Virus record (IMG/VR): IMGVR_UViG_3300047400_000090
Span: 1-64,000 of that record
Strand: one strand, 5' to 3'
Length of the DNA stretch: 64,000 bases
Origin: a virus
Lineage: Duplodnaviria; Caudoviricetes
The translations under genes and the position numbers were made by a program. The notes beneath the pieces were generated by a model. That model was not told the origin of the DNA and made no database searches. It was given only the letters and a program-made list of their open reading frames with translations. Shown piece after piece: positions 4,544 to 47,347 of the stretch; within the stretch, counting starts at the first letter, position 1; the number at the start of each line of letters is the position of its first letter.

Positions 4544-5156
4544 TGACTAACTTAAGAAATTCATCCTTCCCTCTTTGGCGCACAAAGTCATCTGGATCGA
4601 TCCCTACAGGCAGCCTGACGTAACTAATGGGGTGTTTCTCTTCAGTTAAGCCCTCTACGGCGCGTTGGGCAGCGATTACACCGGCGTTATCCCCATCGTA
4701 GCAGACAATAACTCGCTCACTGAATCTCTTAAGCAATCTTAATTGATGCTTTGAGAAAGATGTTCCGCAGGTCGCTACCACATTCCTAATCCCTGCCTGC
4801 CATAGGGCCATAACATCAAAATAGCCCTCGCAGGCAATAGCTACCCCTGACTTCAGGATGTAGTCCCTAGACTTATCTAGTGCGTAAAGTTGCCGTGATT
4901 TCCTGTAAATTTGTGATTCTGATGAGTTTATCCACTTTGGCTTGTCGTCGCCAAGGGTCCTGGCACCAAAGCCGGTCAAGTCTCCATCGACGCTATAGCA
5001 GGGGATCGTAAGCCTGCCACTAAAAGGTCCAGTAGTTTCACAGAACCCGACCCCAAACTCCTTGGCCGTGGAGGCAGTAATTCCTCGCCCAGACAGGTAC
5101 TCCAGTGCTGTGGTGTTGACTGATTCGTAGGCTTTTTGTTCGTCGTAGAGTGTCAT
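4536..5156 (-). CDS. dnaG: DNA primase catalytic core/Toprim domain, lacking the Zn-finger
   Basis: YLSGRGI, GRLTIP, KWINS, CEGYFDV, YDGDNAG, DPDDF. Confidence 0.9.
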   Translation of the reverse strand: MTLYDEQKAYESVNTTALEYLSGRGITASTAKEFGVGFCETTGPFSGRLTIPCYSVDGDLTGFGARTLGDDKPKWINSSESQIYRKSRQLYALDKSRDYILKSGVAIACEGYFDVMALWQAGIRNVVATCGTSFSKHQLRLLKRFSERVIVCYDGDNAGVIAAQRAVEGLTEEKHPISYVRLPVGIDPDDFVRQRGKDEFLKLVNA

Positions 5157-5335
5157 AAGTACTCATTAAACCTCGCAACGTAAGGAGGCGACTTTAGCCG
5201 TAGAAAGTCGCTTTCTCCACACAGCGTAGTCATAACCTTTCTACCTTGACTAGCCCCACTCCAACCGCCGAACCCGCCACTGGCTCCTAGGTTACGCCAC
5301 CGTGGATTTAAACATGCCCACAAAAGATTGGTCAT
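5153..5335 (-). CDS. array-1 short ORF (MTNLLWACLNPRW)
   Basis: ATGA overlaps on both sides; paralog of the neighbouring ORF. Confidence 0.55.
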   Translation of the reverse strand: MTNLLWACLNPRWRNLGASGGFGGWSGASQGRKVMTTLCGESDFLRLKSPPYVARFNEYL

Positions 5336-5460
5336 GGCTTGTACCTCTGGATATATGGAGCCTTTGTTATCAGATACTTAGCGTAGCAGAGTTTAGTGAG
5401 GTGGGGACCCATAAAAGTGAGACTCCACCTAGGGTTAAAACAAGCCCATAACAAAGTCAT
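5332..5460 (-). CDS. array-1 short ORF (MTLLWACFNPRW)
   Basis: Internal ATG of track ORF 5332..5544; shares LLWAC.NPRW with neighbour. Confidence 0.5.
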   Translation of the reverse strand: MTLLWACFNPRWSLTFMGPHLTKLCYAKYLITKAPYIQRYKP

Positions 5461-5632
5461 AATTCTCTTTAATATCCAATTGGCTATATCTAGCAAAACT
5501 TGCGCCTTCCGTAATGTCGTCGCAACAGCAGTTGACAACTCCAAGACCAGAAACCTTGTTAGCGTTAAGCCTACAACTAGACAAGTATTTCCAACTAGTC
5601 GCCGAGGCTGCCAGCATCATCCATGGCCTCAT
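5435..5632 (-). CDS. array-1 short ORF (MRPWMML)
   Basis: ATGA overlap; M-R-x-W start. Confidence 0.55.
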   Translation of the reverse strand: MRPWMMLAASATSWKYLSSCRLNANKVSGLGVVNCCCDDITEGASFARYSQLDIKENYDFVMGLF

Positions 5633-5811
5633 CGCGTCACCCTGGTGGACATTCCATAAATCGTAATCTGATCAAGCCTAGCCTGCAAGCCATCAAGAAT
5701 AACAGAGCAACCACGACCACCTAGGCCATTAACCAGACTACTGTTAAACTTAGCTGCCGACCAGTATTGTGAGCGAAACACAGATGGGCACAGCGTCATC
5801 CAGCACTTCAT
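5629..5811 (-). CDS. array-1 short ORF (MKCWMTLCPS)
   Basis: ATGA overlap; MKxW..L.PS motif. Confidence 0.6.
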   Translation of the reverse strand: MKCWMTLCPSVFRSQYWSAAKFNSSLVNGLGGRGCSVILDGLQARLDQITIYGMSTRVTR

Positions 5812-6038
5812 CGGCGTACTAGCATCAGCAACTTAGTCTTAGGGAAGTCTCCTTGATTAATGGAAGATTCAAGCATCGGTATCCTAGAGTAGGATATTGG
5901 TAGCATTCTTATTCCCGCCATAAAACACCCTAAAACACCAAGGATATTGCCATTAACATAAGACTGCCGCACGTGCGGAATTGTCTGACAATAGAGTGTT
6001 CGATTGAACGACGGATCCAGTGTAAGCCAAGATTTCAT
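5808..6038 (-). CDS. array-1 short ORF (MKSWLTLDPS)
   Basis: ATGA overlap; MKxW..L.PS motif. Confidence 0.6.
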   Translation of the reverse strand: MKSWLTLDPSFNRTLYCQTIPHVRQSYVNGNILGVLGCFMAGIRMLPISYSRIPMLESSINQGDFPKTKLLMLVRR

Positions 6039-6247
6039 CGCTTCACCAAGCGTAATAATCCAGTAATCACCGTAGCTCCAGTGATGTCTGAATCAAGCGT
6101 TCTGTAAAATGACATGCGGAGACTTGCACAACAAGTGCTACTAGTGAAACCAAAATCTCGCAGGAGCTTAAACATACCAACATAATTCAGGGGAGAATAG
6201 TAGGTAGATGCATGAAACGAAGGAGTTATCATTAGCCATGATTTCAT
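6035..6247 (-). CDS. array-1 short ORF (MKSWLMITPS)
   Basis: MKxW...PS motif. Confidence 0.6.
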   Translation of the reverse strand: MKSWLMITPSFHASTYYSPLNYVGMFKLLRDFGFTSSTCCASLRMSFYRTLDSDITGATVITGLLRLVKR

Positions 6248-6251
6248 GCGT

Positions 6252-6449
6252 CTATCCCCTTACCGGGAAATCGTAACAAGCCAAGAAACACATTTTGCTT
6301 CTATGTAAAACAGCAGTAGGATCAGACGCAAAGCTAGTCATCGATCCATCCTTTAATAAATTACGCCTAACCAACTTGGAATCGAATCTGCAGTACGAGG
6401 CATAACGATTCTTGTATAAGGACGGCAGAAGATAATTCCACACCTTCAT
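6252..6449 (-). CDS. array-1 short ORF (MKVWNYLLPS)
   Basis: ATGA overlap with the CHC2 gene; MKxW...PS motif. Confidence 0.6.
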   Translation of the reverse strand: MKVWNYLLPSLYKNRYASYCRFDSKLVRRNLLKDGSMTSFASDPTAVLHRSKMCFLACYDFPVRG

Positions 6450-7108
6450 GCACTCGCCCCCTTTAGCCTACTAACCATTTCTAGGCGGTGTCCCTTGAGG
6501 CACCATGCAGGGTTCTTCAGTCCCTCCCAGGACTTCCTCGTCCTGAAGTACTCGGTCAGTTCCTTGTCATTGATTTCATCGAGTTGATCCATGGCAGCCT
6601 CTCTACGGGTAGCTTCAGTATAAGCCAACATGGCCTGAGACTCCAACTCCTCGGTAAAGGTCTCCATCAACTGCCGACAGGCGACACGGTAAATCTTCCA
6701 CTGGGCATTAGTATAGATCACCAAGTTCTCCCTCAGTTCCTTCTTCCACGCCCTAACAGCCTTCCTCTCCACCGCCAGCCGCTTACTACGCGCCTCATAG
6801 ACCTCCCTCTGGGATGGAGTCATGAAGTCTGTACTAACCCCAGCAATCACGGCAGCCTGCTTCAGCGCCTCGCTAAAGCTAACCCCCATAATCCCCTGGA
6901 GGTAGGTAATACAATCTCCCTTGGCGTTGCAACTATAGCACTTGTACCGTCCCCAGGAGTCATCTACACAGAAACTGGGGTTCTTCTCCTGGTGAAACGG
7001 ACACAGCCCAACCCATCGGTCTTTGTTGCTAGTTCTCCTCAGTGAGACCTGCTGTGAGACTAACTGGGAAAGAACGATGTTTGACTTGATTAGGTCAATA
7101 TCGACCAT
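6446..7108 (-). CDS. CHC2 zinc-finger protein (DnaG N-terminal domain) with helical C-terminal extension
   Basis: GLCPFHQEKNPSF...YKCYSCNAKGD. Confidence 0.9.
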   Translation of the reverse strand: MVDIDLIKSNIVLSQLVSQQVSLRRTSNKDRWVGLCPFHQEKNPSFCVDDSWGRYKCYSCNAKGDCITYLQGIMGVSFSEALKQAAVIAGVSTDFMTPSQREVYEARSKRLAVERKAVRAWKKELRENLVIYTNAQWKIYRVACRQLMETFTEELESQAMLAYTEATRREAAMDQLDEINDKELTEYFRTRKSWEGLKNPAWCLKGHRLEMVSRLKGASA

Positions 7109-8349
7109 TACAGCCTCTCAATTAAGTACCGCTGCGCCTCAGCCATCGACTTGCCGCAGCAGTCCTGCAGGTAATCCGAATCAACCATCTTGCTTCCGTT
7201 ATTGATTCTGAACCATAACTCTGTTAATTGCAACAGGTTAGCAGGCTTAAACTCAAGGCGATAGTCGATGCGGCCAGGGCGGATGAGGGCCGGATCCAGC
7301 TTATCAATGCGATTAGTAGTCATAAATAGCAAGGTGCCCTCAATGGACCCCATGCCATCTAAGCAGTTAAGAAGCGCAGATAGCGAAACACCCTTGCGCT
7401 CTGGGGATAATTCCCGGTCAGGGGCTACACAGTCTGCGTCTTCGATTAGGATAATTGACCCCTTGCGAATCTCGCTAAAGAGGTACTCCAGGCGGTCGTC
7501 ATCCATGCCACTGCTTCCTAGGCTCAGGACGTACATGTCCATCTTAAGCTCACCAGCCAATGCCGCAATCAGGCTGCTTTTGCCGGAGCCAGCCACCCCA
7601 TGGAAGAGGTACCCACGGTGCCATGGGATACCTAGTTGCTTATACCACTCGCTGGAGTTAATAAACTTCTTGGCGTCTTCCAGGAGGGCATCCTTTTCTC
7701 CCTGGGGAAGAATTACGCTATCCATGGCCCTAGGGCTGACTTCCTTGTAGGATCTCCAGTTCCCGTAGACCGAGTTATAGATTTTGATGCTAGAGCGAAC
7801 CTTGAAAGAAGCCATGGAGGCATCTCGGATGATCTGCTTAGCCTTCTCGGTGGAACGAGTAAAGACTTTAACAGAGATAGTCTCAAGCATCCTTCCACCG
7901 CCAGAGACCTTAGAGGCGGAGCCCATTTCGTCTTTATGGCGGTCAATTCTGATTACTTGTCCGTTGACATAAACCCAATGAATTCCTATAGATGGAGAGA
8001 AAATAACAGTTGGTGGCTCTTTCGCAGCAGGGTCATGATCAGGGATAGCGTCAATGATTGAAGTCACTCCAGTCCTGGAGTTCCCGAAGTTATCCACAGT
8101 GGTAGCCTCAAGCCGCCTAGAACGGCTAGAGTATTCCAACTTCGACATCCACAGGGATAGACTATCAAACAGCGGGTCTGAGTTTCTGACGTGGATATCA
8201 ACACTGATTCTACGGACCAGCCAATAGAAAATCTCCGATGGGATCTTGCGTGCTAGGGCCATTACGGCACCGGCAGCCATGACAATTAGGCCGCCAGAAA
8301 CAAACTGGTTCTGAAGCTGATCGGTTAAGGAGCCAAGAAGAGGAATCAT
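7108..8349 (-). CDS. BCS1-like AAA+ ATPase with N-terminal transmembrane segment
   Basis: GYLFHGVAGSGKSS, LIEDADC, LSALLNCLDG, MTTN, LDPALIRPGRID; hydrophobic GGLIVMAAGAVMALA. Confidence 0.85.
   Translation of the reverse strand: MIPLLGSLTDQLQNQFVSGGLIVMAAGAVMALARKIPSEIFYWLVRRISVDIHVRNSDPLFDSLSLWMSKLEYSSRSRRLEATTVDNFGNSRTGVTSIIDAIPDHDPAAKEPPTVIFSPSIGIHWVYVNGQVIRIDRHKDEMGSASKVSGGGRMLETISVKVFTRSTEKAKQIIRDASMASFKVRSSIKIYNSVYGNWRSYKEVSPRAMDSVILPQGEKDALLEDAKKFINSSEWYKQLGIPWHRGYLFHGVAGSGKSSLIAALAGELKMDMYVLSLGSSGMDDDRLEYLFSEIRKGSIILIEDADCVAPDRELSPERKGVSLSALLNCLDGMGSIEGTLLFMTTNRIDKLDPALIRPGRIDYRLEFKPANLLQLTELWFRINNGSKMVDSDYLQDCCGKSMAEAQRYLIERL
8062..8085. promoter_or_regulatory. dispersed palindrome copy
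   Basis: AGTCACTCCAG-TC-CTGGAGTTCCC, inside BCS1-like gene. Confidence 0.75.
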
Positions 8350-10677: not shown

Positions 10678-10700
10678 TCTGGTTCCTCTTGGGGATAATA

Positions 10701-10732: not shown

Positions 10733-10748
10733 TAAACTGTGTCAAAAT

Positions 10749-10824
10749 TGGTACGCTAGCTAGGCTTCGAACCTAGATTCCATCCTTAGGAGTGATGTGT
10801 CCTATCCATTTGAACGACTGGCGC
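10749..10824 (-). tRNA. tRNA-Arg (CCU)
   Basis: Cloverleaf GCGCCAG...CTAGCGT, anticodon loop CT-CCT-AA, TTCGAA T-loop, encoded CCA. Confidence 0.85.
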
Positions 10825-10826
10825 AC

Positions 10827-10902
10827 TGGTATCCCCATCAGGAATCGAACCTGAATTCCCGTCTTAGAAGGGCGGTGCTCTATCCGATTGAGCTATAGGG
10901 AC
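10827..10902 (-). tRNA. tRNA-Arg (UCU)
   Basis: GTCCCTA...TGGGGAT, TAGCTCAATCGGATAGAGC D-arm, loop CT-TCT-AA, TTCGATT, encoded CCA. Confidence 0.9.
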
Positions 10903-12128: not shown

Positions 12129-12157
12129 ATTATAGCCACCGATTCACGGATTGTCAA
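12129..12157 (-). promoter_or_regulatory. sigma70 consensus promoter
   Basis: TTGACA-17bp-TATAAT on the minus strand. Confidence 0.85.
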
Positions 12158-13151
12158 CTGACATCAGTAACTTGCCGCCCTGAACCGAGATGTATGCCTG
12201 CTTCTTCTTGGATAACTTGCCTGCGTTTACTAGTCGGGCCATGGGAAGCGTGATGGACTGGTGGATAAGTCGCTTAATCGGCCTAGCGCCGTACTCTTTG
12301 CTGAATCCGTTATCTATAAGATAATCAACAACTTCCTGATCGTAACTAATCTCCCAGGCCCGATCCTCATGGTTAGTCATTACAAGGTCTTGTACGGCCT
12401 GAATTTCGTTCTCTACAATCATCCCAAGGTTGTCCCTGGAGAGGTCATTGTAGGTAATAATTTCATCCAGTCGATTAATGAACTCTGGCAGTAGGGTCTT
12501 CTTGGCGGCTCCTGTGCCGACATTGCCCATTCCTGCAGAGGTAGTTGGCTTAGAGTAGGCAGAGAACCCGAAACTGGGGTCACTAGCCTGCTTTAGCTCC
12601 TTGGCCCCCAGATTAGAGGTTAGGAAGATTATGGTGTCCTTAAAAGGAACCTTGCTGGCATCGCCCAGCGTTAACTGGGCTTTATCAAAGACGCCAAGTA
12701 GCACGTTTTGAAGGGAGGTGGCAGCCTTCTCGATTTCATCGAAAACGATAATCGCCAGAGAAGAATGTCCTGACCGTGTCTCGTTGATCGTCTTGGCAGA
12801 CAGCAGTGAGGGAGTTTCGCGGTGGCCTAAGTATCCTGCGGGGCTGCCTAAAACCCTAGCAACCTCGTGCTCATTTCTCATCTCTCCACAGTCAATCCGG
12901 GTTAGGCTAGTGGAGGATCCATGGAGGCACTCCGCCAGGACCTCGGCAGTCTTGGTCTTGCCGCAGCCAGTCTTCCCTAGGAGAAGGAATACCCCCACTG
13001 GGCGGGTACTAGGGCACAGTTGAGCCTGATATACCTCAATGTACGGGACGATTCGCTCTAGGGCCGCATCCTGGCCAATAAGGAGTTCCTTGGATCGACT
13101 CAGGAGGTTGGAGTAGCCTACTTCATTTGACTGCCGCTTAGCTGCGCTCAT
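12144..13151 (-). CDS. ClpA/ClpB-like AAA+ ATPase, D2 module only
   Basis: LGKTGCGKT, VLGSPAGYLGH, FDEIEKA, FLTSNLG, PEFINRLD, YGARPIKR. Confidence 0.9.
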   Translation of the reverse strand: MSAAKRQSNEVGYSNLLSRSKELLIGQDAALERIVPYIEVYQAQLCPSTRPVGVFLLLGKTGCGKTKTAEVLAECLHGSSTSLTRIDCGEMRNEHEVARVLGSPAGYLGHRETPSLLSAKTINETRSGHSSLAIIVFDEIEKAATSLQNVLLGVFDKAQLTLGDASKVPFKDTIIFLTSNLGAKELKQASDPSFGFSAYSKPTTSAGMGNVGTGAAKKTLLPEFINRLDEIITYNDLSRDNLGMIVENEIQAVQDLVMTNHEDRAWEISYDQEVVDYLIDNGFSKEYGARPIKRLIHQSITLPMARLVNAGKLSKKKQAYISVQGGKLLMSVDNP

Positions 13152-16207: not shown

Positions 16208-16396
16208 TTAAAATCTACTACTAGCGTCGTCGGTAAAGCGAAATTGCGAGGTCTTGGAGGTAGACCTACGCCTCTCGGCGGCAGTATAGAAGATCCACCC
16301 GCTATGTCTGCGTGTTAGGCGATGGGAAAGAGTATTTACCAGCCTTTCGCCATTTAGGCCGGATGTGTTTAATCCAAACATGTAAGAGAATCTCAT
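16208..16396 (-). CDS. array-2 short ORF (MRFSYMFG..LNGE)
   Basis: Paralog of adjacent ORF; 1-bp overlap. Confidence 0.6.
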   Translation of the reverse strand: MRFSYMFGLNTSGLNGERLVNTLSHRLTRRHSGWIFYTAAERRRSTSKTSQFRFTDDASSRF

Positions 16397-16596
16397 TAGT
16401 TAAACCTGTCGCTAGCCTGATCTGCGTACATGTGCTTAGAGTTATGGGAAATAATGATATCAAAAGACATATCTCCGTTAGCTGGCCATAGATGGTGTGA
16501 CCACAGCAGGCATTTGTGCATAAACCTGAATCGCCAGTTAATAGACTCCCCGTTAAGCCACTCCGTGGTGGGACCGAACATGTAAGCAAATCTCAT
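16396..16596 (-). CDS. array-2 short ORF (MRFAYMFG..LNGE)
   Basis: Paralog of adjacent ORF; ATGA overlap. Confidence 0.6.
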   Translation of the reverse strand: MRFAYMFGPTTEWLNGESINWRFRFMHKCLLWSHHLWPANGDMSFDIIISHNSKHMYADQASDRFN

Positions 16597-16856
16597 TTTA
16601 TACGTCCCATGATGCGGTCAATTGTTTTTGCTAACTCTTTAAGTGTTGGATCTTTCGGTTCTATTCTTGAGTAGTGCTTGCAATCGTAGTTGGAATTCCT
16701 GTCTGAGTCGGTGCAGGATTTTCGCTCCGGGACTGCCCCGGCCCTGCAAATCGGACTCTCTTCTGGGTAGCCGCACCTTGCGTCAATGATAGCCGGATTG
16801 CCGAACGCTCTGTACGGCCTGAAATACTTACAGTCTTCGCAGTAGATTTTACTCAT
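16593..16856 (-). CDS. Cys-rich small protein
   Basis: CEDCKYF...C...C...C...C. Confidence 0.6.
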   Translation of the reverse strand: MSKIYCEDCKYFRPYRAFGNPAIIDARCGYPEESPICRAGAVPERKSCTDSDRNSNYDCKHYSRIEPKDPTLKELAKTIDRIMGRIK

Positions 16857-17026
16857 TTATTTCTCCTGGCAGGGAAAGTTAGATAGTTCATTGGACTCGG
16901 ACTGGTTGCTACCTTCTTGCCATAAATAAGCCAAGATAGACTATCTGAATAGACCCTGAAACATTGATAGGTCATAAGTGCTACGCTACCTATGGTCATC
17001 CCTGCCGCCCTAGTTGCGGTAGTCAT
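16853..17026 (-). CDS. array-2 short ORF (MTTATRAAG...SWLIY)
   Basis: Manual translation, 57 aa, ATGA overlaps both ends. Confidence 0.55.
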   Translation of the reverse strand: MTTATRAAGMTIGSVALMTYQCFRVYSDSLSWLIYGKKVATSPSPMNYLTFPARRNK

Positions 17027-17166
17027 GCAGCCCTGCCTGGATAGCGTACAACTACTCCGATAGCTGTTGTCTTTTTATAGATAAGCCATGAAACGCACGA
17101 GAAGGAAATTCGTCCTAACTCTGCGGAACGAATTGCCATTGTCGCTGTCTTTACAGCCGTAGTCAT
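17023..17166 (-). CDS. array-2 short ORF (MTTAVKTAT...SWLIY)
   Basis: Manual translation, 47 aa, ATGA overlaps. Confidence 0.55.
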   Translation of the reverse strand: MTTAVKTATMAIRSAELGRISFSCVSWLIYKKTTAIGVVVRYPGRAA

Positions 17167-17321
17167 TTAGAGAACCTGCGTGGATACCAAACAACACCAC
17201 CGCTAACTGTTACTTCTTGATAAACTAGCCATGACCAGTAGGCGCACGAGTAGTCATTCAACCCAGAGTCACTATAATCAACTCCTGGCATCGCTGTCTT
17301 TACCGCCGTAGATAAGCCCAT
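17163..17321 (-). CDS. array-2 short ORF (MGLSTAVKTA...SWLVY)
   Basis: Manual translation, 52 aa; shares TAVKTA and SWLxY. Confidence 0.5.
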   Translation of the reverse strand: MGLSTAVKTAMPGVDYSDSGLNDYSCAYWSWLVYQEVTVSGGVVWYPRRFSK

Positions 17322-17548
17322 CCAACAACTCCTACCATTTTGTCAACCGGCCTACCATGGCATCTCAGGGATGCAGGCGTCGGGTTATTGAGAAAGCCTA
17401 CCCTCTCATAAAAGAAAAGGCACAAATGCTTCAAGGAAATCTTATGAAGGTCAAGCGGAGCAATGGATGGAATCTTGTAGTTTTTTGATCCGGTAAATCT
17501 TGGAGTCCTGAACCTCCCAATAGAAACGGCCAGTCTCGCAGATGTCAT
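17300..17548 (-). CDS. short hypothetical ORF (MTSARLAV)
   Basis: ATGA overlap with upstream gene. Confidence 0.4.
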   Translation of the reverse strand: MTSARLAVSIGRFRTPRFTGSKNYKIPSIAPLDLHKISLKHLCLFFYERVGFLNNPTPASLRCHGRPVDKMVGVVGWAYLRR

Positions 17549-22499: not shown

Positions 22500-23289
22500 T
22501 TGCAGCTAAAGCCTTCCCTGTTTTCTCGATGGCGGCAAGGTCCGCAAAAGCCTTAGCGAGTTCCGATTGAGTCATGCTAAGTAGCGCCGAAAGTGGCTTT
22601 TCGTAGTCGGCTCCAGCCTGTGGCAGGGCAGAGCTATCAGTCTTGCCAAAGTAGGCGCAGTAGAAACGCACAAGGTCTTCTCGACTTACTCCCTTAGCTA
22701 GTACAGAGTCCCGCATCTCCTTAACGGTCACTCCAGGACTGGAGTGATTTGGAGCGAGTTGCCCAGAGCCGTTAGTTGGCTGGGGGGGCGCTTTAGGTGC
22801 CGCCTTGGGCGCTTGCTTTGCTTGCGTAGTCTGCTGAGGAGGAGTGGAGGCTTTATTGGCATCGTCATCGAGTTCTGAGTAGAGGCTAAACATAGCTCCC
22901 AGGCCGTAGCGGCGAGCATAACTAATGGCTGATCCAATGGCCTGTGGCTTGCCGTCTTCGGAGGTAAGGGTAAAGACCGAAGAGAGCCACTGGGAGGAGG
23001 CTGCGTGGAAGACTACGGTCTCTACGGAGATGGTCTTGCCTTCTACTTTGGGAGGCTGCATCATTAGTAACCCAGCCTTAACTAGTGGTGCCTTGATGGC
23101 TTCCATACAGGCAGCAAGGTCGGCGTAATGGCTCTTAAAGTGTGGATTAAGGGAGTCCTTGGTAGCTGCCTCAATCTCAGTCCAGGCGGCAAGGAAGGCC
23201 GGGAGGATTTTGTCAATCTTCTCTGAGGTTCGGAGATTGCTAAAGGGGAGCGAGTTAGGCGGTTGGGCCGGGGTAGTTGAGTCTGTCAT
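22492..23289 (-). CDS. erf: ERF family single-strand annealing recombinase
   Basis: NPHFKSHYADL, QAIGSAISYARRYGL. Confidence 0.9.
   Translation of the reverse strand: MTDSTTPAQPPNSLPFSNLRTSEKIDKILPAFLAAWTEIEAATKDSLNPHFKSHYADLAACMEAIKAPLVKAGLLMMQPPKVEGKTISVETVVFHAASSQWLSSVFTLTSEDGKPQAIGSAISYARRYGLGAMFSLYSELDDDANKASTPPQQTTQAKQAPKAAPKAPPQPTNGSGQLAPNHSSPGVTVKEMRDSVLAKGVSREDLVRFYCAYFGKTDSSALPQAGADYEKPLSALLSMTQSELAKAFADLAAIEKTGKALAASA
22726..22749. promoter_or_regulatory. dispersed palindrome copy
   Basis: GGTCACTCCAG-GA-CTGGAGTGATT, inside erf. Confidence 0.8.
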
Positions 23290-23437
23290 AGGTTATTCCT
23301 TCTTTCTGTGCTTTCAAAATCATTATGTTTTCGTTGACGGGGCCGCTAGGTACTGGCTTGAGAAATGCACGTCCCTTATAGGTTAATGGGTAAACATACA
23401 CCATGTCAAGCATTAAATAGAATCGAATGTCTACCAA
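23255..23437 (-). CDS. array-3 short ORF (..IRFYLMLD)
   Basis: Position and composition; overlaps ERF start. Confidence 0.35.
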   Translation of the reverse strand: MVDIRFYLMLDMVYVYPLTYKGRAFLKPVPSGPVNENIMILKAQKEGITYDRLNYPGPTA

Positions 23438-23628
23438 TTGGGTACGCTCCTAAAGTTTTCCAGATGTCGAACTGCCTGTCGATTAAAGGCGCAGTACCCT
23501 CCTGCTACTATCAGATCAATGGGTCCAGTCCTGAACCTCTCGGAGAATTTGCAGATGCCGAACCGTCCGCCCCAGAAGCTGCTCATGCCGCTCATGTTCT
23601 TACCGTTAAACATCATGAAAATTCTCAT
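23431..23628 (-). CDS. array-3 short ORF (MRIFMMFNG)
   Basis: ATGA overlap; MMFNG shared. Confidence 0.55.
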   Translation of the reverse strand: MRIFMMFNGKNMSGMSSFWGGRFGICKFSERFRTGPIDLIVAGGYCAFNRQAVRHLENFRSVPNW

Positions 23629-23834
23629 GGTCGCCACCCTAGCGGTCCAATGAAGTTTCTCTCATGTTCTCTTCCGTGTTCAGCGAAGGGCGAGTCGCTA
23701 CTGGCTACCAAAACGCACCATCCCATGCGTTTCCTGTATGTACATTTATCGGATAAACTAGAAACCCAGTAGCCATTTACTAGGCTCATGTTAACACCGT
23801 TAAGCATTCTTGTGATCTTCACGTTGGCTACCAT
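23625..23834 (-). CDS. array-3 short ORF (..VKITRMLNG)
   Basis: MLNG shared with neighbours. Confidence 0.5.
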   Translation of the reverse strand: MVANVKITRMLNGVNMSLVNGYWVSSLSDKCTYRKRMGWCVLVASSDSPFAEHGREHERNFIGPLGWRP

Positions 23835-24010
23835 TTACATATCTGGAAGTTGGTCCAGTGCTTTCCTAGTCCACTTGTGCGGAGGCAGTTTTGGCCTGCC
23901 CAGGCGGCGATATTCCCATTGTCTTTCATTGCTCTCTTGGACCAGAGATTGATTGGGTAGTCGTCCTGCGCTGTTACATAGGCCCCGTTAAACATCATAA
24001 GGATTTTCAT
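23828..24010 (-). CDS. array-3 short ORF (MKILMMFNG)
   Basis: Internal ATG of track ORF; MMFNG shared. Confidence 0.55.
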   Translation of the reverse strand: MKILMMFNGAYVTAQDDYPINLWSKRAMKDNGNIAAWAGQNCLRTSGLGKHWTNFQICKW

Positions 24011-24038
24011 TTTGGTAACCAATCTATTTCTGGTCTTC

Positions 24039-24110
24039 TTAAAGTTCATCCGTGAAGCAACTCTTTATGGTAATGCCCCAGATTAGCGGTACGGATAGGT
24101 AGCACTTCAT
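24039..24110 (-). pseudogene. array-3 truncated member (MKCYLSVPLIW, 23 aa)
   Basis: Manual translation; ATGA overlap, early stop. Confidence 0.35.
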
Positions 24111-24253
24111 CTCACACGAGACCCTGGGTCATCCCCCTCTGGTGTTATAGCAAACTCATCCAGTAAAGAATCAACATAGACGTATGTACTCTTTTTTGAG
24201 CGAGTGAACCACCTTGCGCTGGTGTATCCAAAAAGATAAATCCAATGTTTCAT
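24107..24253 (-). CDS. array-3 short ORF (MKHWIYLFGY)
   Basis: Internal ATG of track ORF; MKxW start. Confidence 0.55.
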   Translation of the reverse strand: MKHWIYLFGYTSARWFTRSKKSTYVYVDSLLDEFAITPEGDDPGSRVR

Positions 24254-24257
24254 ATAA

Positions 24258-24425
24258 TTACCACTTCGCAGCTTCTTCTTTGACTCCTTGAGACAAGTAG
24301 AAACGGCGCACCCCGTGTGCAAATCCTTTTCTGATATCCCAGACCATCCTGTCGTGGCACTTTGTGAAGTTAAGCATTAACTCATGGGGATATTCACAGA
24401 ACAACAGGCTCATCCAGCACTTCAT
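24258..24425 (-). CDS. array-3 short ORF (MKCWMSLLFC)
   Basis: Manual translation, 55 aa; ATGA overlap with VWA gene. Confidence 0.55.
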   Translation of the reverse strand: MKCWMSLLFCEYPHELMLNFTKCHDRMVWDIRKGFAHGVRRFYLSQGVKEEAAKW

Positions 24426-25564: not shown

Positions 25565-25569
25565 TTCAG

Positions 25570-25830
25570 TTATACCTTGCCACTGTCCTTGTTGCGAATT
25601 TTCCGTCTACGGCCTTGGATAGCGTAGAATACCGGAAGGCGTTCGTTTGTCATGGCATAGTAATCAATCCCGCACGGCCTCATGTGCCCTTTGTTTGACA
25701 ACTTGATCGCCGAGACAGTTAGTGTTTTATGCCCCTTGCTTGCCTCCCGGCTAGTGAAAGACAGGCTAATAAGCCATGATGCGATCACCGAGTCTCTTAC
25801 CCTCGTCTGGAACATCGCCAGTGGACTCAA
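25570..25830 (-). CDS. short hypothetical ORF, possible degenerate array member (..IASWLISL)
   Basis: Between AAA and VWA genes; true start probably a GTG further downstream. Confidence 0.35.
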   Translation of the reverse strand: MSPLAMFQTRVRDSVIASWLISLSFTSREASKGHKTLTVSAIKLSNKGHMRPCGIDYYAMTNERLPVFYAIQGRRRKIRNKDSGKV

Positions 25831-27282: not shown

Positions 27283-27453
27283 CTAACAAAACTTTATCAA
27301 CATCTTCTGTCGCATTAAAAGGCTTTCTTTACCTCCTACCGCGTTGCTTCTGCTTGACTCGGCCACGAAGTAGTACTCCCTCTCGACTTGGGCAAACAGT
27401 CTCCAGTGGTTCCCCGCCAAGTCACAGTACATTAAATAGCGATATGGCTTCAT
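27283..27453 (-). CDS. array-4 short ORF (MKPYRYLMYC)
   Basis: Manual translation, 56 aa; ATGA overlap. Confidence 0.55.
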   Translation of the reverse strand: MKPYRYLMYCDLAGNHWRLFAQVEREYYFVAESSRSNAVGGKESLLMRQKMLIKFC

Positions 27454-27641
27454 CTAGACCTGCTGTTGTACTTTACCAGCGCTCTCTGTCTTGGCGTACG
27501 GGAAGCGATGCAGGCACCATTAAACTCCCGAGAATCACTAAGTAAAGATATTATGCAATCCGTGCCGTGCTGGATTGCTAGAGCAAAGCACCCCAGGTCT
27601 CCGCTCTGCCAGTGAAGGCAGTAATGGTATGGCTTCATCAT
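27450..27641 (-). CDS. array-4 short ORF (MMKPYHYCLHW)
   Basis: ATGA overlap; MKPY start. Confidence 0.55.
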   Translation of the reverse strand: MMKPYHYCLHWQSGDLGCFALAIQHGTDCIISLLSDSREFNGACIASRTPRQRALVKYNSRSR

Positions 27642-27796
27642 TTGTAGAATCTCCTGGTCCTTTTGTCATCTGGAAGATCGAAGATTTCCCTCATTATAGA
27701 AACGAAATGAATCGGAATCCATCCCCTGGTATCGATTCTCTGATAGGCTACTCCGCGATGTCTGTAATTGGTTCCATACCAGAGTGACGTTCTCAT
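27638..27796 (-). CDS. array-4 short ORF (MRTSLWYGTNY)
   Basis: Manual translation, 52 aa; overlap-coupled. Confidence 0.5.
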   Translation of the reverse strand: MRTSLWYGTNYRHRGVAYQRIDTRGWIPIHFVSIMREIFDLPDDKRTRRFYK

Positions 27797-27978
27797 TAGC
27801 AATACTTCCTTGCGCTCCTGATTCTTAATTTACCCTTAGCTATCACGCGAAACAGAATCGCTTCGCTGGGAAGTATAGAAACAAGAGAAATCATTGTGCC
27901 CCCATTTCCGTTGACTCTTGAGACGTAGGCGACGTTATGGTATCCGTAATAAAGCGAAGACAACATGGCCGCTCTCAT
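27796..27978 (-). CDS. array-4 short ORF (MRAAMLSSLYYGY)
   Basis: Overlap-coupled; SL[WY]YG...VAY shared with neighbour. Confidence 0.5.
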   Translation of the reverse strand: MRAAMLSSLYYGYHNVAYVSRVNGNGGTMISLVSILPSEAILFRVIAKGKLRIRSARKYC

Positions 27979-41088: not shown

Positions 41089-41112
41089 AATTAGTCCAGT
41101 ACTGGAGTAATT
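41089..41112. promoter_or_regulatory. dispersed palindrome copy
   Basis: AATTAGTCCAG-TA-CTGGAGTAATT, intergenic. Confidence 0.8.
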
Positions 41113-43038: not shown

Positions 43039-43075
43039 CTACCTCTATTATAAGGATTTAGTGGCTCAAGCCTAA

Positions 43076-43243
43076 CTAAATTGTGGGTCGGTAGTAGAAG
43101 CGCCGCCTATCCCCGAACTCGCGGAACATGTGGGTGATGATGCGGTTGTTAAATCTGCACCTCATTTCAAACGACCAGTGGAACATTGGATTCTTGCTTG
43201 ATATCATTCTTCCCATGGTTAGTCCAGAAATCCAAGTCTTCAT
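43076..43243 (-). CDS. array-5 short ORF (MKTWISGLTM)
   Basis: Manual translation, 55 aa; ATGA overlap. Confidence 0.55.
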   Translation of the reverse strand: MKTWISGLTMGRMISSKNPMFHWSFEMRCRFNNRIITHMFREFGDRRRFYYRPTI

Positions 43244-43476
43244 GTGTACAGTTCCGGCATCTTGACTGGAGCTTTAATGATCGACCTTGCAGGAAGTGGA
43301 CTAAACGTATCACTTGCAACTATGTAGCAACGATGCTTACCGGGCTCCCGGCACTGCCTACTTAGGGTAGATTCTAGTGTTCTAGATCCGTCAACTGACT
43401 CCGTTATGGCGAAGATGCTACAGCCATTAAAGATGAACTGAGATGGTATGTTTAGGCTTCTTATCCATGGTTTCAT
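43240..43476 (-). CDS. array-5 short ORF (MKPWIRSL)
   Basis: ATGA overlap. Confidence 0.6.
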   Translation of the reverse strand: MKPWIRSLNIPSQFIFNGCSIFAITESVDGSRTLESTLSRQCREPGKHRCYIVASDTFSPLPARSIIKAPVKMPELYT

Positions 43477-43697
43477 TTTGTGTACATCCTAACTCTCCCC
43501 ATAAATCCAATTCCGTCTCTGGAGTAGACATCAAAGCAATGAAGCATTGAGGCATACACTACTCGCCTATAGTGACCACCCATGGTTCTTCCTCCGGTTG
43601 TACAGCACCACGGATCACGACTTCTCATTGGGCCGTTCTTGATATTTACATATGGCTGGTAGTGGACGTAACTAATTGATGATATCCAGGGCTTCAT
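43473..43697 (-). CDS. array-5 short ORF (MKPWISSISY...GRVRMYTK)
   Basis: One of three tandem paralogs. Confidence 0.7.
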   Translation of the reverse strand: MKPWISSISYVHYQPYVNIKNGPMRSRDPWCCTTGGRTMGGHYRRVVYASMLHCFDVYSRDGIGFMGRVRMYTK

Positions 43698-43936
43698 TTT
43701 GTGTACATCCTGACCCTACCGATAAATCCAGGGCCGTTTTTACAGTAGACATCTAGTAGTCCGCAGTTCTCAAATCCATGACGCATTGAGGCAAACACTA
43801 CGTTCCTCTTTGATCCTCCAATGGTTATTCCTCCTGATTTCCCGCACCACGGATCTCTACTAATCATTACCCTGTTCCTAATTTTAAAGTATGGCTCGTA
43901 GTGGTTGTAGCTAATTGTAGACAGATATGGCTTCAT
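43694..43936 (-). CDS. array-5 short ORF (MKPYLSTISY...GRVRMYTK)
   Basis: Tandem paralog. Confidence 0.7.
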   Translation of the reverse strand: MKPYLSTISYNHYEPYFKIRNRVMISRDPWCGKSGGITIGGSKRNVVFASMRHGFENCGLLDVYCKNGPGFIGRVRMYTK

Positions 43937-44154
43937 TTTGTGTACATCCTGACTCTACCGACAAAGCAGTGTGGGTCTTTTAGTGGATCCATAACCAATG
44001 GAAACAGCGATGCATAAACTAAGTACCTCCCGGATCCTGTCCACGTTTTACCTCCAGACTTGGTAATGTACGGCATTATGTTCTTCATTGGCCCATCTCT
44101 GTTTGACAGGTGCCTATAGTTAACGTAGGTAATTGTCGATATCCAGGGTTTCAT
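43933..44154 (-). CDS. array-5 short ORF (MKPWISTITY...GRVRMYTK)
   Basis: Tandem paralog. Confidence 0.7.
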   Translation of the reverse strand: MKPWISTITYVNYRHLSNRDGPMKNIMPYITKSGGKTWTGSGRYLVYASLFPLVMDPLKDPHCFVGRVRMYTK

Positions 44155-44387
44155 TTTGATCTGTTATAGGTCCTTATAAATGTCTGCCTGGATGATCCGT
44201 CTTTTGATCTATCCAAGACTCGAATCACTGCCGAGGCGCAGGTCGCAACTACTCCATTAGCTGACTTAGCAGGACTTGACTTAAAGATATAATGCCTCTC
44301 GTTGCCGATTGGATAACACGCCAGACATTGGTATACCGCCAAGGAGTTAATGTAGTGCGGGAGTGTCCAGCAGTAGTAGTGTTTCAT
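44151..44387 (-). CDS. array-5 short ORF (MKHYYCWTLP)
   Basis: ATGA overlap. Confidence 0.6.
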   Translation of the reverse strand: MKHYYCWTLPHYINSLAVYQCLACYPIGNERHYIFKSSPAKSANGVVATCASAVIRVLDRSKDGSSRQTFIRTYNRSK

Positions 44388-44584
44388 CGGTTCCTCATAA
44401 TAACGCCTCTACGGTGACATGGTAATGCGCTCCAGCAAGAGGCGTAGCAGGCGAAAAAATAATCGCTCATTGATATCAGGTCAACTGTGTAATTGGCTCC
44501 ATTTTGGTTTCCGATTTTAGACCAATGAAAATGTGTGGATATATTGCATGCGTCCCTGGTCGTCCAGCAGTAGTAGTGTTTCAT
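44384..44584 (-). CDS. array-5 short ORF (MKHYYCWTTRDA)
   Basis: TTRD...CYAS...GxxxR subfamily. Confidence 0.65.
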   Translation of the reverse strand: MKHYYCWTTRDACNISTHFHWSKIGNQNGANYTVDLISMSDYFFACYASCWSALPCHRRGVIMRNR

Positions 44585-44811
44585 CGGTTTCTGAGTAGCA
44601 TCCCTCCCTTAGTGTGATACGGATGGGTGTAGCCTGAAGCGTAGCATGAACAAATGGTACCGGCGGAGGTTGACAAAGTATCAATGTGGGTATCTACTCC
44701 ATGGATTTTGCCGACCTTTGTAAACATGTCGTACACCACGGAGAGCCTCCCCTCTATGGCTTGGGAAATAATTGCGTCCCTGGTAGTCCAGCAGTAGAGA
44801 AAGTTCTTCAT
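44581..44811 (-). CDS. array-5 short ORF (MKNFLYCWTTRDA)
   Basis: Internal ATG with ATGA overlap; TTRD subfamily. Confidence 0.65.
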   Translation of the reverse strand: MKNFLYCWTTRDAIISQAIEGRLSVVYDMFTKVGKIHGVDTHIDTLSTSAGTICSCYASGYTHPYHTKGGMLLRNR

Positions 44812-44993
44812 TTTGTCCTTAGTATCATGCCAGATCTCCATGGGATGGCGTCCCTATAGCACGAGGCCCACTCCACTAGAACACCATCTCTTGACTGAGT
44901 TGATGTCCAGATAGACTTAGCGGTTAGTGCCATGGTCCATAAATTGGCATAGGTAGAGTCTCTGGTGGTTAGCCCCTGCAGGTAACTCTTCAT
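44808..44993 (-). CDS. array-5 short ORF (MKSYLQGLTTRDS)
   Basis: TTRD...ASCY subfamily. Confidence 0.65.
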   Translation of the reverse strand: MKSYLQGLTTRDSTYANLWTMALTAKSIWTSTQSRDGVLVEWASCYRDAIPWRSGMILRTK

Positions 44994-45172
44994 ACGACCC
45001 TAGTGTGCATCCCTCTACGGCCTGCCGGAACCGACCTATAGCACGAGGCGAACTCAGCCACAATTCCATTGCCTGAAGAATATGAATTGAAGAAACTCCA
45101 TTGAAGATCAACAAGAGAACTATACACAATTTTAGAGTCTCTGTAGGTTATCGATCTAAGCCACTGCCTCAA
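44990..45172 (-). CDS. array-5 short ORF (MRQWLRSITYRDS)
   Basis: TTGA overlap; ASCY subfamily. Confidence 0.6.
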   Translation of the reverse strand: MRQWLRSITYRDSKIVYSSLVDLQWSFFNSYSSGNGIVAEFASCYRSVPAGRRGMHTRVV

Positions 45173-45441
45173 AATTCACCTACCTTGCTAGATCTCCAGC
45201 CAATCTTTGGGTAATAGTGCCATGCCATGCTGTCTGTTCTGGCGTAAGACGCCAAGACGCATCCATATAACCCATTCAAAATGCTAGCTTTACTCTGCAT
45301 TGAGACAAGTATCTTGCTTTGCTGTGTGACGCTCCCAGACAGATAGATCGTCGCCTTGGTAGTGGCACACCATACTGGAATCTCTCCCGTTGACCAGTAC
45401 CTGTGGCCAGCAAACGGTAATGCTGTAATCCAGTGTTTCAT
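45169..45441 (-). CDS. array-5 short ORF (MKHWITALPF)
   Basis: First ORF after internal promoter and palindrome. Confidence 0.6.
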   Translation of the reverse strand: MKHWITALPFAGHRYWSTGEIPVWCATTKATIYLSGSVTQQSKILVSMQSKASILNGLYGCVLASYARTDSMAWHYYPKIGWRSSKVGEF

Positions 45442-45445
45442 TACA

Positions 45446-45469
45446 GATTAGTCCAGTACTGGAGTGATT
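45446..45469. promoter_or_regulatory. dispersed palindrome copy
   Basis: GATTAGTCCAG-TA-CTGGAGTGATT, between promoter 45493 and start codon 45441. Confidence 0.85.
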
Positions 45470-45492
45470 CTGAGGTGCCAACCATAAGCTGA

Positions 45493-45521
45493 AGTATAGC
45501 CAGTTATTATCTACATGTCAA
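45493..45521 (-). promoter_or_regulatory. sigma70-like promoter inside array 5
   Basis: TTGACA-17bp-TATACT. Confidence 0.8.
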
Positions 45522-45523
45522 CC

Positions 45524-45646
45524 TTAATCACGTCCTGTCTTTACTGGAGGGAATAGAAACAGGAGTAAACATTCAAGAGAGCAGCACCGGATCGCAGCGT
45601 TGCTTATGCTGCTTCTGACTGGGCCGAAATAAAGATACGATCTCAC
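45524..45646 (-). CDS. array-5 short ORF (GTG start, MRSYLYFG)
   Basis: Manual translation, 40 aa. Confidence 0.4.
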   Translation of the reverse strand: MRSYLYFGPVRSSISNAAIRCCSLECLLLFLFPPVKTGRD

Positions 45647-45687
45647 GTCTATCGAGACAGGCTCTCATTGGTAATTACAATACTACC

Positions 45688-45861
45688 CTAGACATCAAAC
45701 TTTGGCAACCATTGCCACTCTAGGCTGGCATAGCTAGCCGCTCCGAATGGACTAGTTAGAGAGCTTGCGTTGGGAGCCACCCTGTGCGCTAAAACCCAGG
45801 ACATAATTTCGCAAGGGCCAGTGCCCCATACATGGCATGACGACATTAAGAAGTGTTTCAT
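45688..45861 (-). CDS. array-5 short ORF (MKHFLMSSCH)
   Basis: Manual translation, 57 aa; ATGA overlap. Confidence 0.55.
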   Translation of the reverse strand: MKHFLMSSCHVWGTGPCEIMSWVLAHRVAPNASSLTSPFGAASYASLEWQWLPKFDV

Positions 45862-46064
45862 AATACGTAGTACGGGAACCTGCCTTTAAAGGACGTATAG
45901 CAGCAATAGGCACCTAGTGACCCATTGCTGCCGTGCCTAGAGACAGTGCTAAGTAGTTCTATTCCAATTCCTGACTGATGGGCAGATGTAACCCATTTCT
46001 TATGCGCTCCCGGTATTCCCTTGCGGTAGTGCGGACTAACTAGTCCGATTAGGTATGGTTTCAT
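45858..46064 (-). CDS. array-5 short ORF (MKPYLIGL)
   Basis: ATGA overlap. Confidence 0.6.
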   Translation of the reverse strand: MKPYLIGLVSPHYRKGIPGAHKKWVTSAHQSGIGIELLSTVSRHGSNGSLGAYCCYTSFKGRFPYYVL

Positions 46065-46222
46065 AAGAATCTACTAGATCTAAACCACCAACCGGCTTGG
46101 CAGAATGATACCGCCTTACTGTCCCATCCTGGGTCTTCTAAGAACACCTGACGCAAATAAGTGCAGTACCTGTAGCACTTATTTGCGGTATCCATTACAG
46201 GGCAGTACATCCAGATCTTCAA
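46061..46222 (-). CDS. array-5 short ORF (TTG start, MKIWMYCP)
   Basis: Internal start of track ORF. Confidence 0.5.
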   Translation of the reverse strand: MKIWMYCPVMDTANKCYRYCTYLRQVFLEDPGWDSKAVSFCQAGWWFRSSRFL

Positions 46223-46224
46223 AG

Positions 46225-46410
46225 TCACCCCACCCTCTCCGCGTACACCTGCTCTTCCGCCGCCGAGAACCTGTGCCCGTCTCGAATAACCTTTACAGAG
46301 GCCCCGTTCGCCCATCCTTTGCCGGTAATACAATGAGACTCTATTTGAAATCCATCCATTGAACAAGTTTCGCTTGTTCTCATCCACGGTAAATACATCC
46401 AGGCTTTCAA
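46225..46410 (-). CDS. array-5 short ORF (TTG start, MKAWMYLP)
   Basis: TTGA overlap. Confidence 0.5.
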   Translation of the reverse strand: MKAWMYLPWMRTSETCSMDGFQIESHCITGKGWANGASVKVIRDGHRFSAAEEQVYAERVG

Positions 46411-46616
46411 TATGCCCTCCTTGGGAAGACTCTCATGGATCCTACGTGATGGGCGTGCTGTCGAGTAGGTTGACAGTACGCCCATGACTGTAGCCCAATA
46501 TTGTTTGTGTATGCTCTCGATAACATAGAGACACCCTCATGAAAGCCTCTTGCGGTTACCATTACACTTCGGGTTGACGGCTCATAGCCGTGGAATAGAG
46601 CCATGTAGACTTTCAT
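46407..46616 (-). CDS. array-5 short ORF (MKVYMALF)
   Basis: Internal ATG. Confidence 0.55.
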   Translation of the reverse strand: MKVYMALFHGYEPSTRSVMVTARGFHEGVSMLSRAYTNNIGLQSWAYCQPTRQHAHHVGSMRVFPRRAY

Positions 46617-46617
46617 C

Positions 46618-46800
46618 CTAGTCGGTATCCCAGTGGTAAAGTCTTTTCTTCCATAGCCTCTCATTGTTATCTATAACCAAATAAAGCAGCGAGGCCGCCA
46701 GAGCAAGCCATCGCCCTCTGGCCCTGCTCTTTCTGGCGTATAGGTTGAACCACTTGGCAGACTGCTCATGGCTCATAACGGTCATTAGGTAGGCTTTCAT
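46618..46800 (-). CDS. array-5 short ORF (MKAYLMTV...LWKKRLYHW)
   Basis: Shared LWKxRLYxW C-terminus. Confidence 0.6.
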   Translation of the reverse strand: MKAYLMTVMSHEQSAKWFNLYARKSRARGRWLALAASLLYLVIDNNERLWKKRLYHWDTD

Positions 46801-46985
46801 ACCTCGTGCAACCAGTGATACAGTCGATTTTTCCACAATTCATCACTTTTTATTGTGAATTGCTTAATTGATGCAGCAGTGGAATAGTAAGACGAGGATG
46901 CACTTTCGAAGGTGTACATTACCAATCCCTTACTTAGCAATTTCGTCCAGCTTGGGCCGATCCCGGTCATGTTATAAACTTTCAT
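46797..46985 (-). CDS. array-5 short ORF (MKVYNMTG...LWKNRLYHW)
   Basis: Shared LWKxRLYxW C-terminus. Confidence 0.6.
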   Translation of the reverse strand: MKVYNMTGIGPSWTKLLSKGLVMYTFESASSSYYSTAASIKQFTIKSDELWKNRLYHWLHEV

Positions 46986-46986
46986 G

Positions 46987-47154
46987 TTAGCCCCATCGGT
47001 ACAACCGCTCCTTCCATAGCTTCTTATCAGGCGGAACAAGACTAACTATCGATGGACTCATAACTGTCCACATTGCAATGGAGCTAATCCTTGTATACCA
47101 GCAAAAGCGGTCTGATATCATCTTCTCCGGCCCTGCCATGTTATAGACTTTCAT
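46987..47154 (-). CDS. array-5 short ORF (MKVYNMAG...LWKERLYRW)
   Basis: Shared LWKxRLYxW C-terminus. Confidence 0.6.
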   Translation of the reverse strand: MKVYNMAGPEKMISDRFCWYTRISSIAMWTVMSPSIVSLVPPDKKLWKERLYRWG

Positions 47155-47155
47155 T

Positions 47156-47347
47156 CTATCTCTCAAATCTCCCAGGGAAGTCAATAATAGCCTTGGCCCA
47201 GTGTGTAAATAACTGTCCACCATAAGCATAACTACAGGAGGTGGAGATGCAAGAAATTGGTAGATTGTAAGATGTTGCAGACAGCCGCATAGCCATGTGC
47301 CTACTAGTAACTACAAGGCCAGCCGGGAGAACCAAGTGCGATTTCAC
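47156..47347 (-). CDS. array-5 first ORF (GTG start, MKSHLVLP), probably leaderless
   Basis: GTG 7 nt after the -10 box. Confidence 0.5.
   Translation of the reverse strand: MKSHLVLPAGLVVTSRHMAMRLSATSYNLPISCISTSCSYAYGGQLFTHWAKAIIDFPGRFER

Follow-up and report, generated by a model that had tools for sequence, protein, structure and literature searches.

Rows of small overlapping genes in the leftward operons of a tailed phage

Multigene families and gene accordions are familiar from large viruses, examples being poxvirus K3L and the multigene families (MGF) of African swine fever virus (ASFV). Among phages, the hyperplastic regions of T4-type genomes hold small, non-essential ORFan genes that are shuffled via repeated regulatory cassettes (PeSLs; Arbiol et al. 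2010, PMC2839356), and the T-even internal proteins (IPI, IPII and IPIII together with their polymorphic replacements) have only a capsid targeting sequence in common (PMC3012670). In the jumbo phages G and 121Q, more than 30 similar genes are reported to form tandem arrays (Hua et al. 2017, PMC5646251), and a counter-defence role is suspected for the short orphan genes that stand in blocks in crAss-like phages (Yutin et al. 2021, PMC7886860). Here we analyze five minus-strand arrays of small open reading frames (ORFs) in a virus of the Caudoviricetes, the IMG/VR virus record IMGVR_UViG_3300047400_000090 (86,007 bp; CheckV completeness 85%), of which the first 64 kb, positions 1 to 64,000, form the window to which all coordinates refer. 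Taken together, the evidence somewhat favors the view that these ORFs, hereafter units, are lineage-specific small accessory effector genes that have been duplicated in plastic slots of early/replication operons.

Layout and junctions of the five arrays

The initial annotation had described about 45 overlap-coupled micro-ORFs in five minus-strand blocks, and both the blocks and their coordinates were borne out: we counted about 44 units, which occupy 8.8 kb or 10% of the record. Minus-strand ORFs of at least 45 amino acids (aa) cover fractions of 1.00, 1.00, 0.95, 1.00 and 0.95 of blocks 1 to 5, against a mean of 0.25-0.35 and a maximum of 0.63-0.81 in 300 shuffles. Similarly, 24 ATGA junctions connect open frames of at least 40 codons, compared with no more than two in the shuffled sequences. 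When starts were curated, 4-nucleotide (nt) overlaps (ATGA or TTGA) accounted for 29 of 47 junctions, 1-nt overlaps for two and gaps of 0-10 nt for seven.

Array 1 (5153..6449; ORF cover 1.00 against a shuffle maximum of 0.76) consists of seven units of 42-76 aa located between the Zn-ribbon and Toprim genes of a split primase; five of them are of the MKxW...PS type and two of the LLWAC.NPRW type. Array 2 (16208..17548), which also has an ORF cover of 1.00 and also shows paralogy, lacks the MKxW motif; its seven units are an 82-aa singleton, three MTTA-type paralogs, a Cys-rich gene (16593-16856) and two MRF.YMFG paralogs. The Cys-rich gene encodes an ordinary-looking 87-aa protein of normal composition that resembles, by eye only, small C-x-x-C genes lying between the primase halves of L002, one of two relatives (L002 and L004) with about 50% DnaB identity to this phage. 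Array 3 (23255..24425) follows a VWA gene via an ATGA overlap and runs through six units to the ERF recombinase gene, while the four units of array 4 (27283..27978; 51-63 aa) lie upstream of MoxR-VWA genes.

Array 5 is divided by a 246-nt gap into two blocks. The upper block (45688..47154) is the first stretch transcribed in the leftward operon and contains eight units, in the order three MKVYN/MKAYL units with an LWK.RLY.W tail, one MKVYM unit, two TTG-start K.WMY units, MKPYL and MKHFL. The lower block (43076..45441) comprises twelve units of 55-90 aa, with 4-nt overlaps at 11 of 11 internal junctions. These units have a loose common architecture, in which an MK.[WY] start is followed by a Trp in the middle of the protein, a (Y/C)-A-S motif and a basic tail.

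Whereas the junctions had initially been described as having no obvious Shine-Dalgarno (SD) sequences, an SD-like 4-mer was found 4-18 nt upstream of 63% of units (mean duplex energy -4.8). This frequency is like that of ordinary phage genes (58-65%) and well above that at random positions inside the arrays (19%). The SD element frequently coincides with an AGG or GGA codon of the unit before it, within that unit's basic C-terminal tail, which accounts for part of the conserved basic 'tail'. Many junctions are A-rich immediately before the ATGA, for example ACAAAATGA (43694-43702, 43933-43941 and 44808-44816). At such sites a tRNA-Lys paired with AAA could slip back by one base and bring the ribosome into the frame of the next unit, giving fused products.

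Two minus-strand sigma-70-like sequences are the only good promoter-like sites in the 4.3 kb of array 5. The first (47355..47383; TTGACA, 17-nt spacer, TAAGAT; 10 of 12 positions in a consensus scan) stands where the leftward operon begins, in the divergent region opposite the plus-strand genes, and the second (45493..45521; TTGACA, 17-nt spacer, TATACT; 11 of 12 positions) falls in the gap between the two blocks. No stem-loops were found between array 5 units. Between the second promoter and the first ORF of the lower block lies one copy (45452..45463) of a dispersed palindrome, TCCAGTACTGGA, which occurs 14 times with 0-1 mismatch in the window (2579-62762; for example at 41095-41106, 45452-45463 and 62751-62762), against 0.13 copies expected. 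Several copies are positioned just upstream of gene starts, and the palindrome could be an operator or an RNA hairpin.

Selection, duplication and turnover of the units

Diverged relatives were found by profile searches seeded with the units themselves, and selection was tested for arrays 1 and 5 using 11 ortholog pairs. Three relatives, L019, L020 and L021, could be aligned to array 5, with nucleotide identities of 69-83%. Every orthologous array 5 unit in these sequences is open, and the ATGA junctions are kept, as is a TTG start. In eight array 5 pairs, differences at codon positions 1, 2 and 3 number 107, 102 and 233, respectively, and the ratio of nonsynonymous (dN) to synonymous (dS) divergence, the comparison proposed by the initial annotation, is 0.03-0.32 at a synonymous divergence of 0.4-4. 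Lower-block orthologs in L019 and L021 span this whole range of dN/dS, and the upper-block orthologs in L020, likewise open, give 0.15-0.25. Orthologous units are thus under purifying selection at the protein level, which implies that the peptide sequence matters.

A second comparison was provided by strain L022, which matches the window at 99.7% identity over 9.6 kb and in addition has a divergent tract at array 1, which takes in the final 61 codons of the primase Zn-ribbon gene and continues across three array 1 units. Within this tract the primase codons have a dN of 0.021 and a dS of 1.32, while the three units have dN values of 0.085, 0.38 and 0.53, with dN/dS of 0.08, 0.24 and saturated, respectively. 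The units evolve 4-25 times faster than the neighboring essential primase gene, yet under purifying selection. Divergent alleles replace these three units in strains L022-L024. In L014, a tract of 18 single-nucleotide polymorphisms (SNPs) in array 1 leaves the ORF open and the changes are mostly conservative. Overall, the ORFs are almost certainly genuine protein-coding genes.

ALTERNATIVES to coding were excluded, namely stop reassignment, Rfam families and excess RNA structure. The three stop codons are about equally common in all three minus-strand frames of every block, so that a reassigned stop would not open a long frame, and neither an alternative code nor one long recoded frame was retained. 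As for structured RNA, Rfam matched two tRNAs only, and mean folding z-scores of the arrays (-0.75 to +0.33) compare with -0.08 to -0.43 in control genes. An origin by frame-shifting was also rejected, as in tblastx comparisons the arrays matched nothing elsewhere in the genome and nothing in L002 or L004.

Significant similarity between units is almost wholly between neighbors, with insertions and deletions in multiples of 3, and defines about 15 local families of one to five members at 21-64% aa identity. Profile-profile matches between families span only the first 9-18 residues. These adjacent paralogs support the duplication of units that had been proposed, but not the idea of one genome-wide system, since the families are joined by nothing beyond those first residues and array 2 and part of array 1 are free of the motif.

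Duplication and turnover proceed, very probably, by gain, loss and allele replacement of whole units. Unit number differs between relatives, much as expected from the earlier comparison with a gene accordion: the unit at 44384-44584 is absent from L019 and L021, two of three family-A units (43694-44154) are absent from L019, and L020 has one extra K.WM unit. The 44384-44584 unit itself is mosaic-like, its first 8 residues matching the 44151-44387 unit and the rest resembling the 44581-44811 unit. Decayed stubs were also found, namely a 31-aa remnant at 45573-45668, which corresponds to a 69-aa ORF in L020, and a 10-codon stub in L019. The end-points of recombination coincide with junctions, and an allele replacement stops 10 nt upstream of a unit start. 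In L021 (462-593), the next ORF after a 44151-type unit, which it overlaps at an ATGA, is ligase-like and has a K-x-D-G motif; this ORF is without a homolog in the genome of the window phage, so the gene content adjoining the array differs as well.

Within the population, by contrast with the hypervariability initially claimed, the arrays hardly vary. The phage was recovered on more than 20 contigs from many samples at 98.4-100% identity; array 5 is 100% identical in six independent assemblies, as is array 3 in other assemblies and array 4 in one other. Most population contigs, being 100% identical, are uninformative about selection. In no comparison of the window with a relative did dN/dS exceed 0.6, and no match to a reverse transcriptase (RVT_1) was found in the 86-kb record. 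Diversification in the sense of positive selection or hypermutation is therefore not supported, and the target of a diversity-generating retroelement was rejected on the grounds of the missing reverse transcriptase and the identity of array 5 across assemblies. Differences between the window and the strains L013, L014 and L016 are bunched in short tracts (82 and 21 SNPs in window 1-1000 and 2000-3000), which suggests recombination with diverged relatives genome-wide, beyond the arrays too.

Genomic setting and candidate roles

On the minus strand, from about 47.38 kb down to position 1, the window carries replication and nucleotide-function genes, which include DnaB, a split DnaG primase, an RNA ligase, an SNF2-type helicase and the ERF recombinase, as well as MoxR with VWA, Bcs1-like and ClpB-D2-like AAA+ ATPases. 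From 47.40 kb on, genes lie on the plus strand and include an amidase, terminase, portal and major head protein. The primase Zn-ribbon gene (6446..7108, minus strand; Zn_ribbon_DnaG in the orthologs of relatives) forms the upstream border of array 1, and the catalytic Toprim gene (4536..5156, minus strand) its downstream border, joined to the array by an ATGA overlap. The DnaG primase (4536-7108) is split in L002 and L004 too, and in relatives at this distance the space between the halves is filled by one to seven unrelated, ordinary-looking small genes. The slot between the primase halves is plastic across the wider group.

The AAA+ systems, all on the minus strand, lie at 7108-8349 (Bcs1-like), 12144-13151 (ClpB-D2-like) and 24422-26788 (MoxR with its DUF2201/VWA partner). 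The sole tRNA genes in the window, tRNA-Arg(CCU) and tRNA-Arg(UCU) (10749..10902, minus strand), decode AGG and AGA. AGR codons number 53 per 1000 in units and 19 per 1000 in long genes, a 2.8-fold difference, and the share of Arg codons that are AGA or AGG is 67% in units compared with 43% in long genes. Among the late genes, three are very large (1711, 2034 and 1499 aa; window 51011-56146, L025 11277-17381, and L025 17354 onward into L026); that of 1711 aa has no PHROGs match and is distantly similar to that of 1499 aa.

In agreement with the initial annotation, no named family matched the units. Searches of Pfam and PHROGs with 23 units gave no match below E = 0.1, and no unit matched a PDB sequence at E ≤ 10. 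When a 20-sequence profile was run exhaustively with HMMER against 1.84 billion representatives, it returned only the phage's own lineage and one weak repeat protein, P0139, which was treated as a chance match (hhalign probability 22%, no Pfam family). The ESM Atlas gave no usable hit for the units, and blastn and tblastn against 50,697 phage records gave nothing for array 5 or the neighboring 635-aa gene. The primase, the 635-aa protein and two micro-ORF alignments, used as queries against IMG/VR, found nothing, and neither did a profile query in a metagenome scan. A degenerate DNA pattern for MKHYY.WT had seven matches in metagenomes, all of them chance and unrelated to the phage. Structure prediction, a further check suggested at the outset, was uninformative, as the two AlphaFold2 models were unreliable (predicted local distance difference test, pLDDT, scores of 37 for family A and 46 for the 90-aa unit) and showed no confident fold. 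Given that there was no database match and no reliable model, function had to be inferred from context.

The proteins themselves are basic (mean pI 9.5 and mean net charge +5, compared with a mean pI of 6.4 for ordinary small genes of the same operon), and no membrane segments were predicted in them. Relative to long genes of the phage they are enriched in W (3.3% vs 1.6%), Y (6.0% vs 3.7%), M (3.6% vs 1.7%) and F, and depleted in E (2.5% vs 4.7%), D (3.3% vs 5.8%) and Q, so the initial description of the arrays as rich in aromatic and poor in acidic residues holds.

We propose that the units encode soluble, basic, aromatic-rich proteins of 42-90 residues, forming about 15 small families of one phage lineage, and that each array would occupy a plastic slot of the leftward early/replication operons. 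The families would have grown through tandem duplication, with recombination at the conserved stop/start junctions deleting, duplicating or replacing whole units. Transcription may proceed from the host-type promoters at ~47.37 kb and ~45.5 kb. Each unit would be served by its own weak SD element, and as most units begin 4 nt ahead of the preceding stop, translation is probably coupled along the row. The products would most likely serve as accessory effectors that the phage can dispense with and that target host components early in infection. Early expression of the arrays is presumed from their setting; array 5 comes first downstream of the divergent promoter region, where many phages keep takeover or counter-defence genes, and this position would support an early role. 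By analogy with such genes, a role directed at the host, in takeover or counter-defence, has about an even chance of being correct.

Several observations weigh against this proposal. The codon usage of the units is only weakly gene-like, and weak codon bias together with near-random composition would also fit young genes of marginal function. For arrays 2-4, database copies are only identical or near-identical, giving no diverged ortholog, and their coding status rests on ORF statistics, ribosome-binding sites and paralogy. In one family, E, the excess of third-position differences is absent. Both array 5 promoters are consensus matches only. Finally, since the units have no homolog of known function and no confident fold, the host-directed role is drawn from position and analogy only.

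The alternative that survives best, though we consider it unlikely, is that the units are young genes of marginal function with no specific function common to them, which would have arisen de novo in plastic slots, been copied by unequal recombination and been kept by cheap translational coupling. Their amino acid composition is indeed closer to the random-sequence expectation than to that of the phage's long genes (distances of 0.093 and 0.155), the units show little codon bias (G at the first codon position in 25% of codons vs 34% in long genes), and some have decayed, as seen in the 45573-45668 remnant and the L019 stub. The failure to predict a fold, to find a relative outside the lineage, or to detect similarity in any frame to the rest of the genome, L002 or L004 would be expected of such genes as well. 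On the other hand, aromatic residues make up ~13.7-13.8% of the units against 8.8% expected at random, E and Q fall below random expectation, and dN/dS values this low at a synonymous divergence of 0.4-4 reflect long-term purifying selection on the peptides. Moreover, 10% of a size-limited genome would be a large cost to bear for useless genes.

Slightly less probable still is that the start motif is an address, a transferable targeting tag that would deliver some 25 microproteins, otherwise unrelated, to a single machine of the phage. The T-even internal proteins set a precedent for diverse small basic proteins with nothing but such an N-terminal sequence in common. The destination could be the prohead or capsid, for injection, or one of the AAA+ ATPases (Bcs1-like, MoxR-VWA or ClpB-D2-like), and the phage's AGG/AGA tRNAs would support expression of such a library. 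When M-[KR]-x-[WYF]-[ILMV] was sought on ORFs of at least 40 codons, it occurred 26 times genome-wide on both strands, and 22 of these were array units, so that almost nothing else in the genome carries it. The M-K/R-x-W/Y start reported initially was accordingly confirmed for these 22 units, but not for array 2 and part of array 1, which are without it. A tag would explain how the motif joins otherwise unrelated families, why it is the most constrained region (dN 0.069 at the N-terminus vs 0.298 in the middle in ten ortholog pairs) and why position 4 may be W, Y or F, an interchange that suggests a property of the protein; arrays 1, 3 and 4 also adjoin AAA+ genes.

The constraint on the motif is, however, not confined to the protein. 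In the same ten pairs, dS is 0.52 over the first nine codons and 0.70 over the last eight, compared with 1.33 in the middle, and unit starts are nearly identical at the DNA level between arrays. The low dS at unit ends fits selection on the ribosome-binding site and start region, gene conversion at junctions, or both, and the synonymous conservation of the first nine codons, taken with the near-identical starts, means that the motif may in part be a feature of the mRNA start region or of recombination. As to capsid delivery, the arrays lie in early/replication operons, not near the head genes, the alignments contain no L/I-x-E protease site after the motif, and the motif is on no structural protein. 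Regarding an AAA+ machine, the Bcs1-like gene is missing from the corresponding place in L002 and L004, and no such rows were seen beside the Bcs1-like ATPases of phiTE and KASIA, the two phages sampled.

The effector proposal also has to be set against the suggestion, made in the initial annotation, that the units are cis-acting ribosome relays, in other words translated spacers whose frames are open only to hold ribosomes on the mRNA, for example to avoid polarity, the peptide being irrelevant. Dense 4-nt overlaps, a location inside operons of essential replication genes and a random-like composition would all suit such spacers. This alternative is nevertheless highly improbable, because substitutions are in excess at third positions (107/102/233), dN/dS is well below 1 and the changes are conservative; in addition, relatives couple the primase halves with one small ORF, so a relay of 1.3 kb is not needed. 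That the units are not genes at all but chance ORFs, an RNA or repeat array, an alternative code or an assembly artefact has next to no likelihood, for although coding-potential scores are weak, the shuffle tests, the even spread of stops over the three minus-strand frames, the Rfam and folding results, the identical sequence in more than 20 independent assemblies and, decisively, the frames kept in diverged orthologs contradict it.

Comparison with described systems

Rows of tiny orphan genes are among the largest unexplained coding blocks in phage genomes, and annotation often misses or doubts them. The arrays described here are clear evidence that an ORF may have a composition close to random, little codon bias and no fold that can be predicted, and yet be a long-lived, selected gene. 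They also illustrate in detail how such rows change, whole units being gained, lost or replaced by other alleles at junctions. Their short N-terminal motif, constrained at both the protein and the DNA level, lends itself to tests for a tag and for a signal of the start region. Should any of the units act in host takeover or counter-defence, they would be new factors, none with a known relative.

The arrays resemble the T4-type hyperplastic regions in that orphan small genes are gathered in plastic slots flanked by conserved replication genes, whole genes have been inserted, deleted or replaced between close relatives, and exchange takes place at short conserved intergenic sequences. In contrast to those regions, no promoter-plus-stem-loop cassette of the PeSL kind separates the units of this phage. 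Its units overlap by 4 nt, so that the conserved junction is the ribosome-binding site, stop and start itself, and most neighbors are paralogs of each other.

Like the T-even internal proteins, the unit products are small, basic, fast-diverging and unrelated but for a short conserved N-terminal motif, and the T4 capsid targeting sequence also begins M-K-x-Y. In place of a leader of about ten residues ending in L/I-x-E, however, the motif conserved here spans five residues and no conserved Glu follows it. The genes lie in early/replication operons and number about 44 as opposed to a handful.

Expansion by tandem duplication, with copy number varying between relatives, is a feature common to these arrays, to those of phages G and 121Q and to gene accordions. 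The present arrays differ in consisting of many small families (2-5 members, 21-64% identity) and not of one large family of similar copies; the genome is only 86-97 kb, and there is no evidence of recent amplification under selection.

Rows of short, lineage-restricted genes are also seen in the blocks of crAss-like phages and in anti-CRISPR-type loci, and as in the former, an anti-defence function is suspected. As for an Aca-like helix-turn-helix gene, which in anti-CRISPR-type loci follows the small genes, none was detected beside the arrays, Pfam having revealed no helix-turn-helix family in the flanking genes tested. Compared with the crAss-like blocks, this phage is distinctive in the composition of its units and in their common N-terminal motif. 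The arrays add another case to a pattern that has been seen before, though it is little understood.

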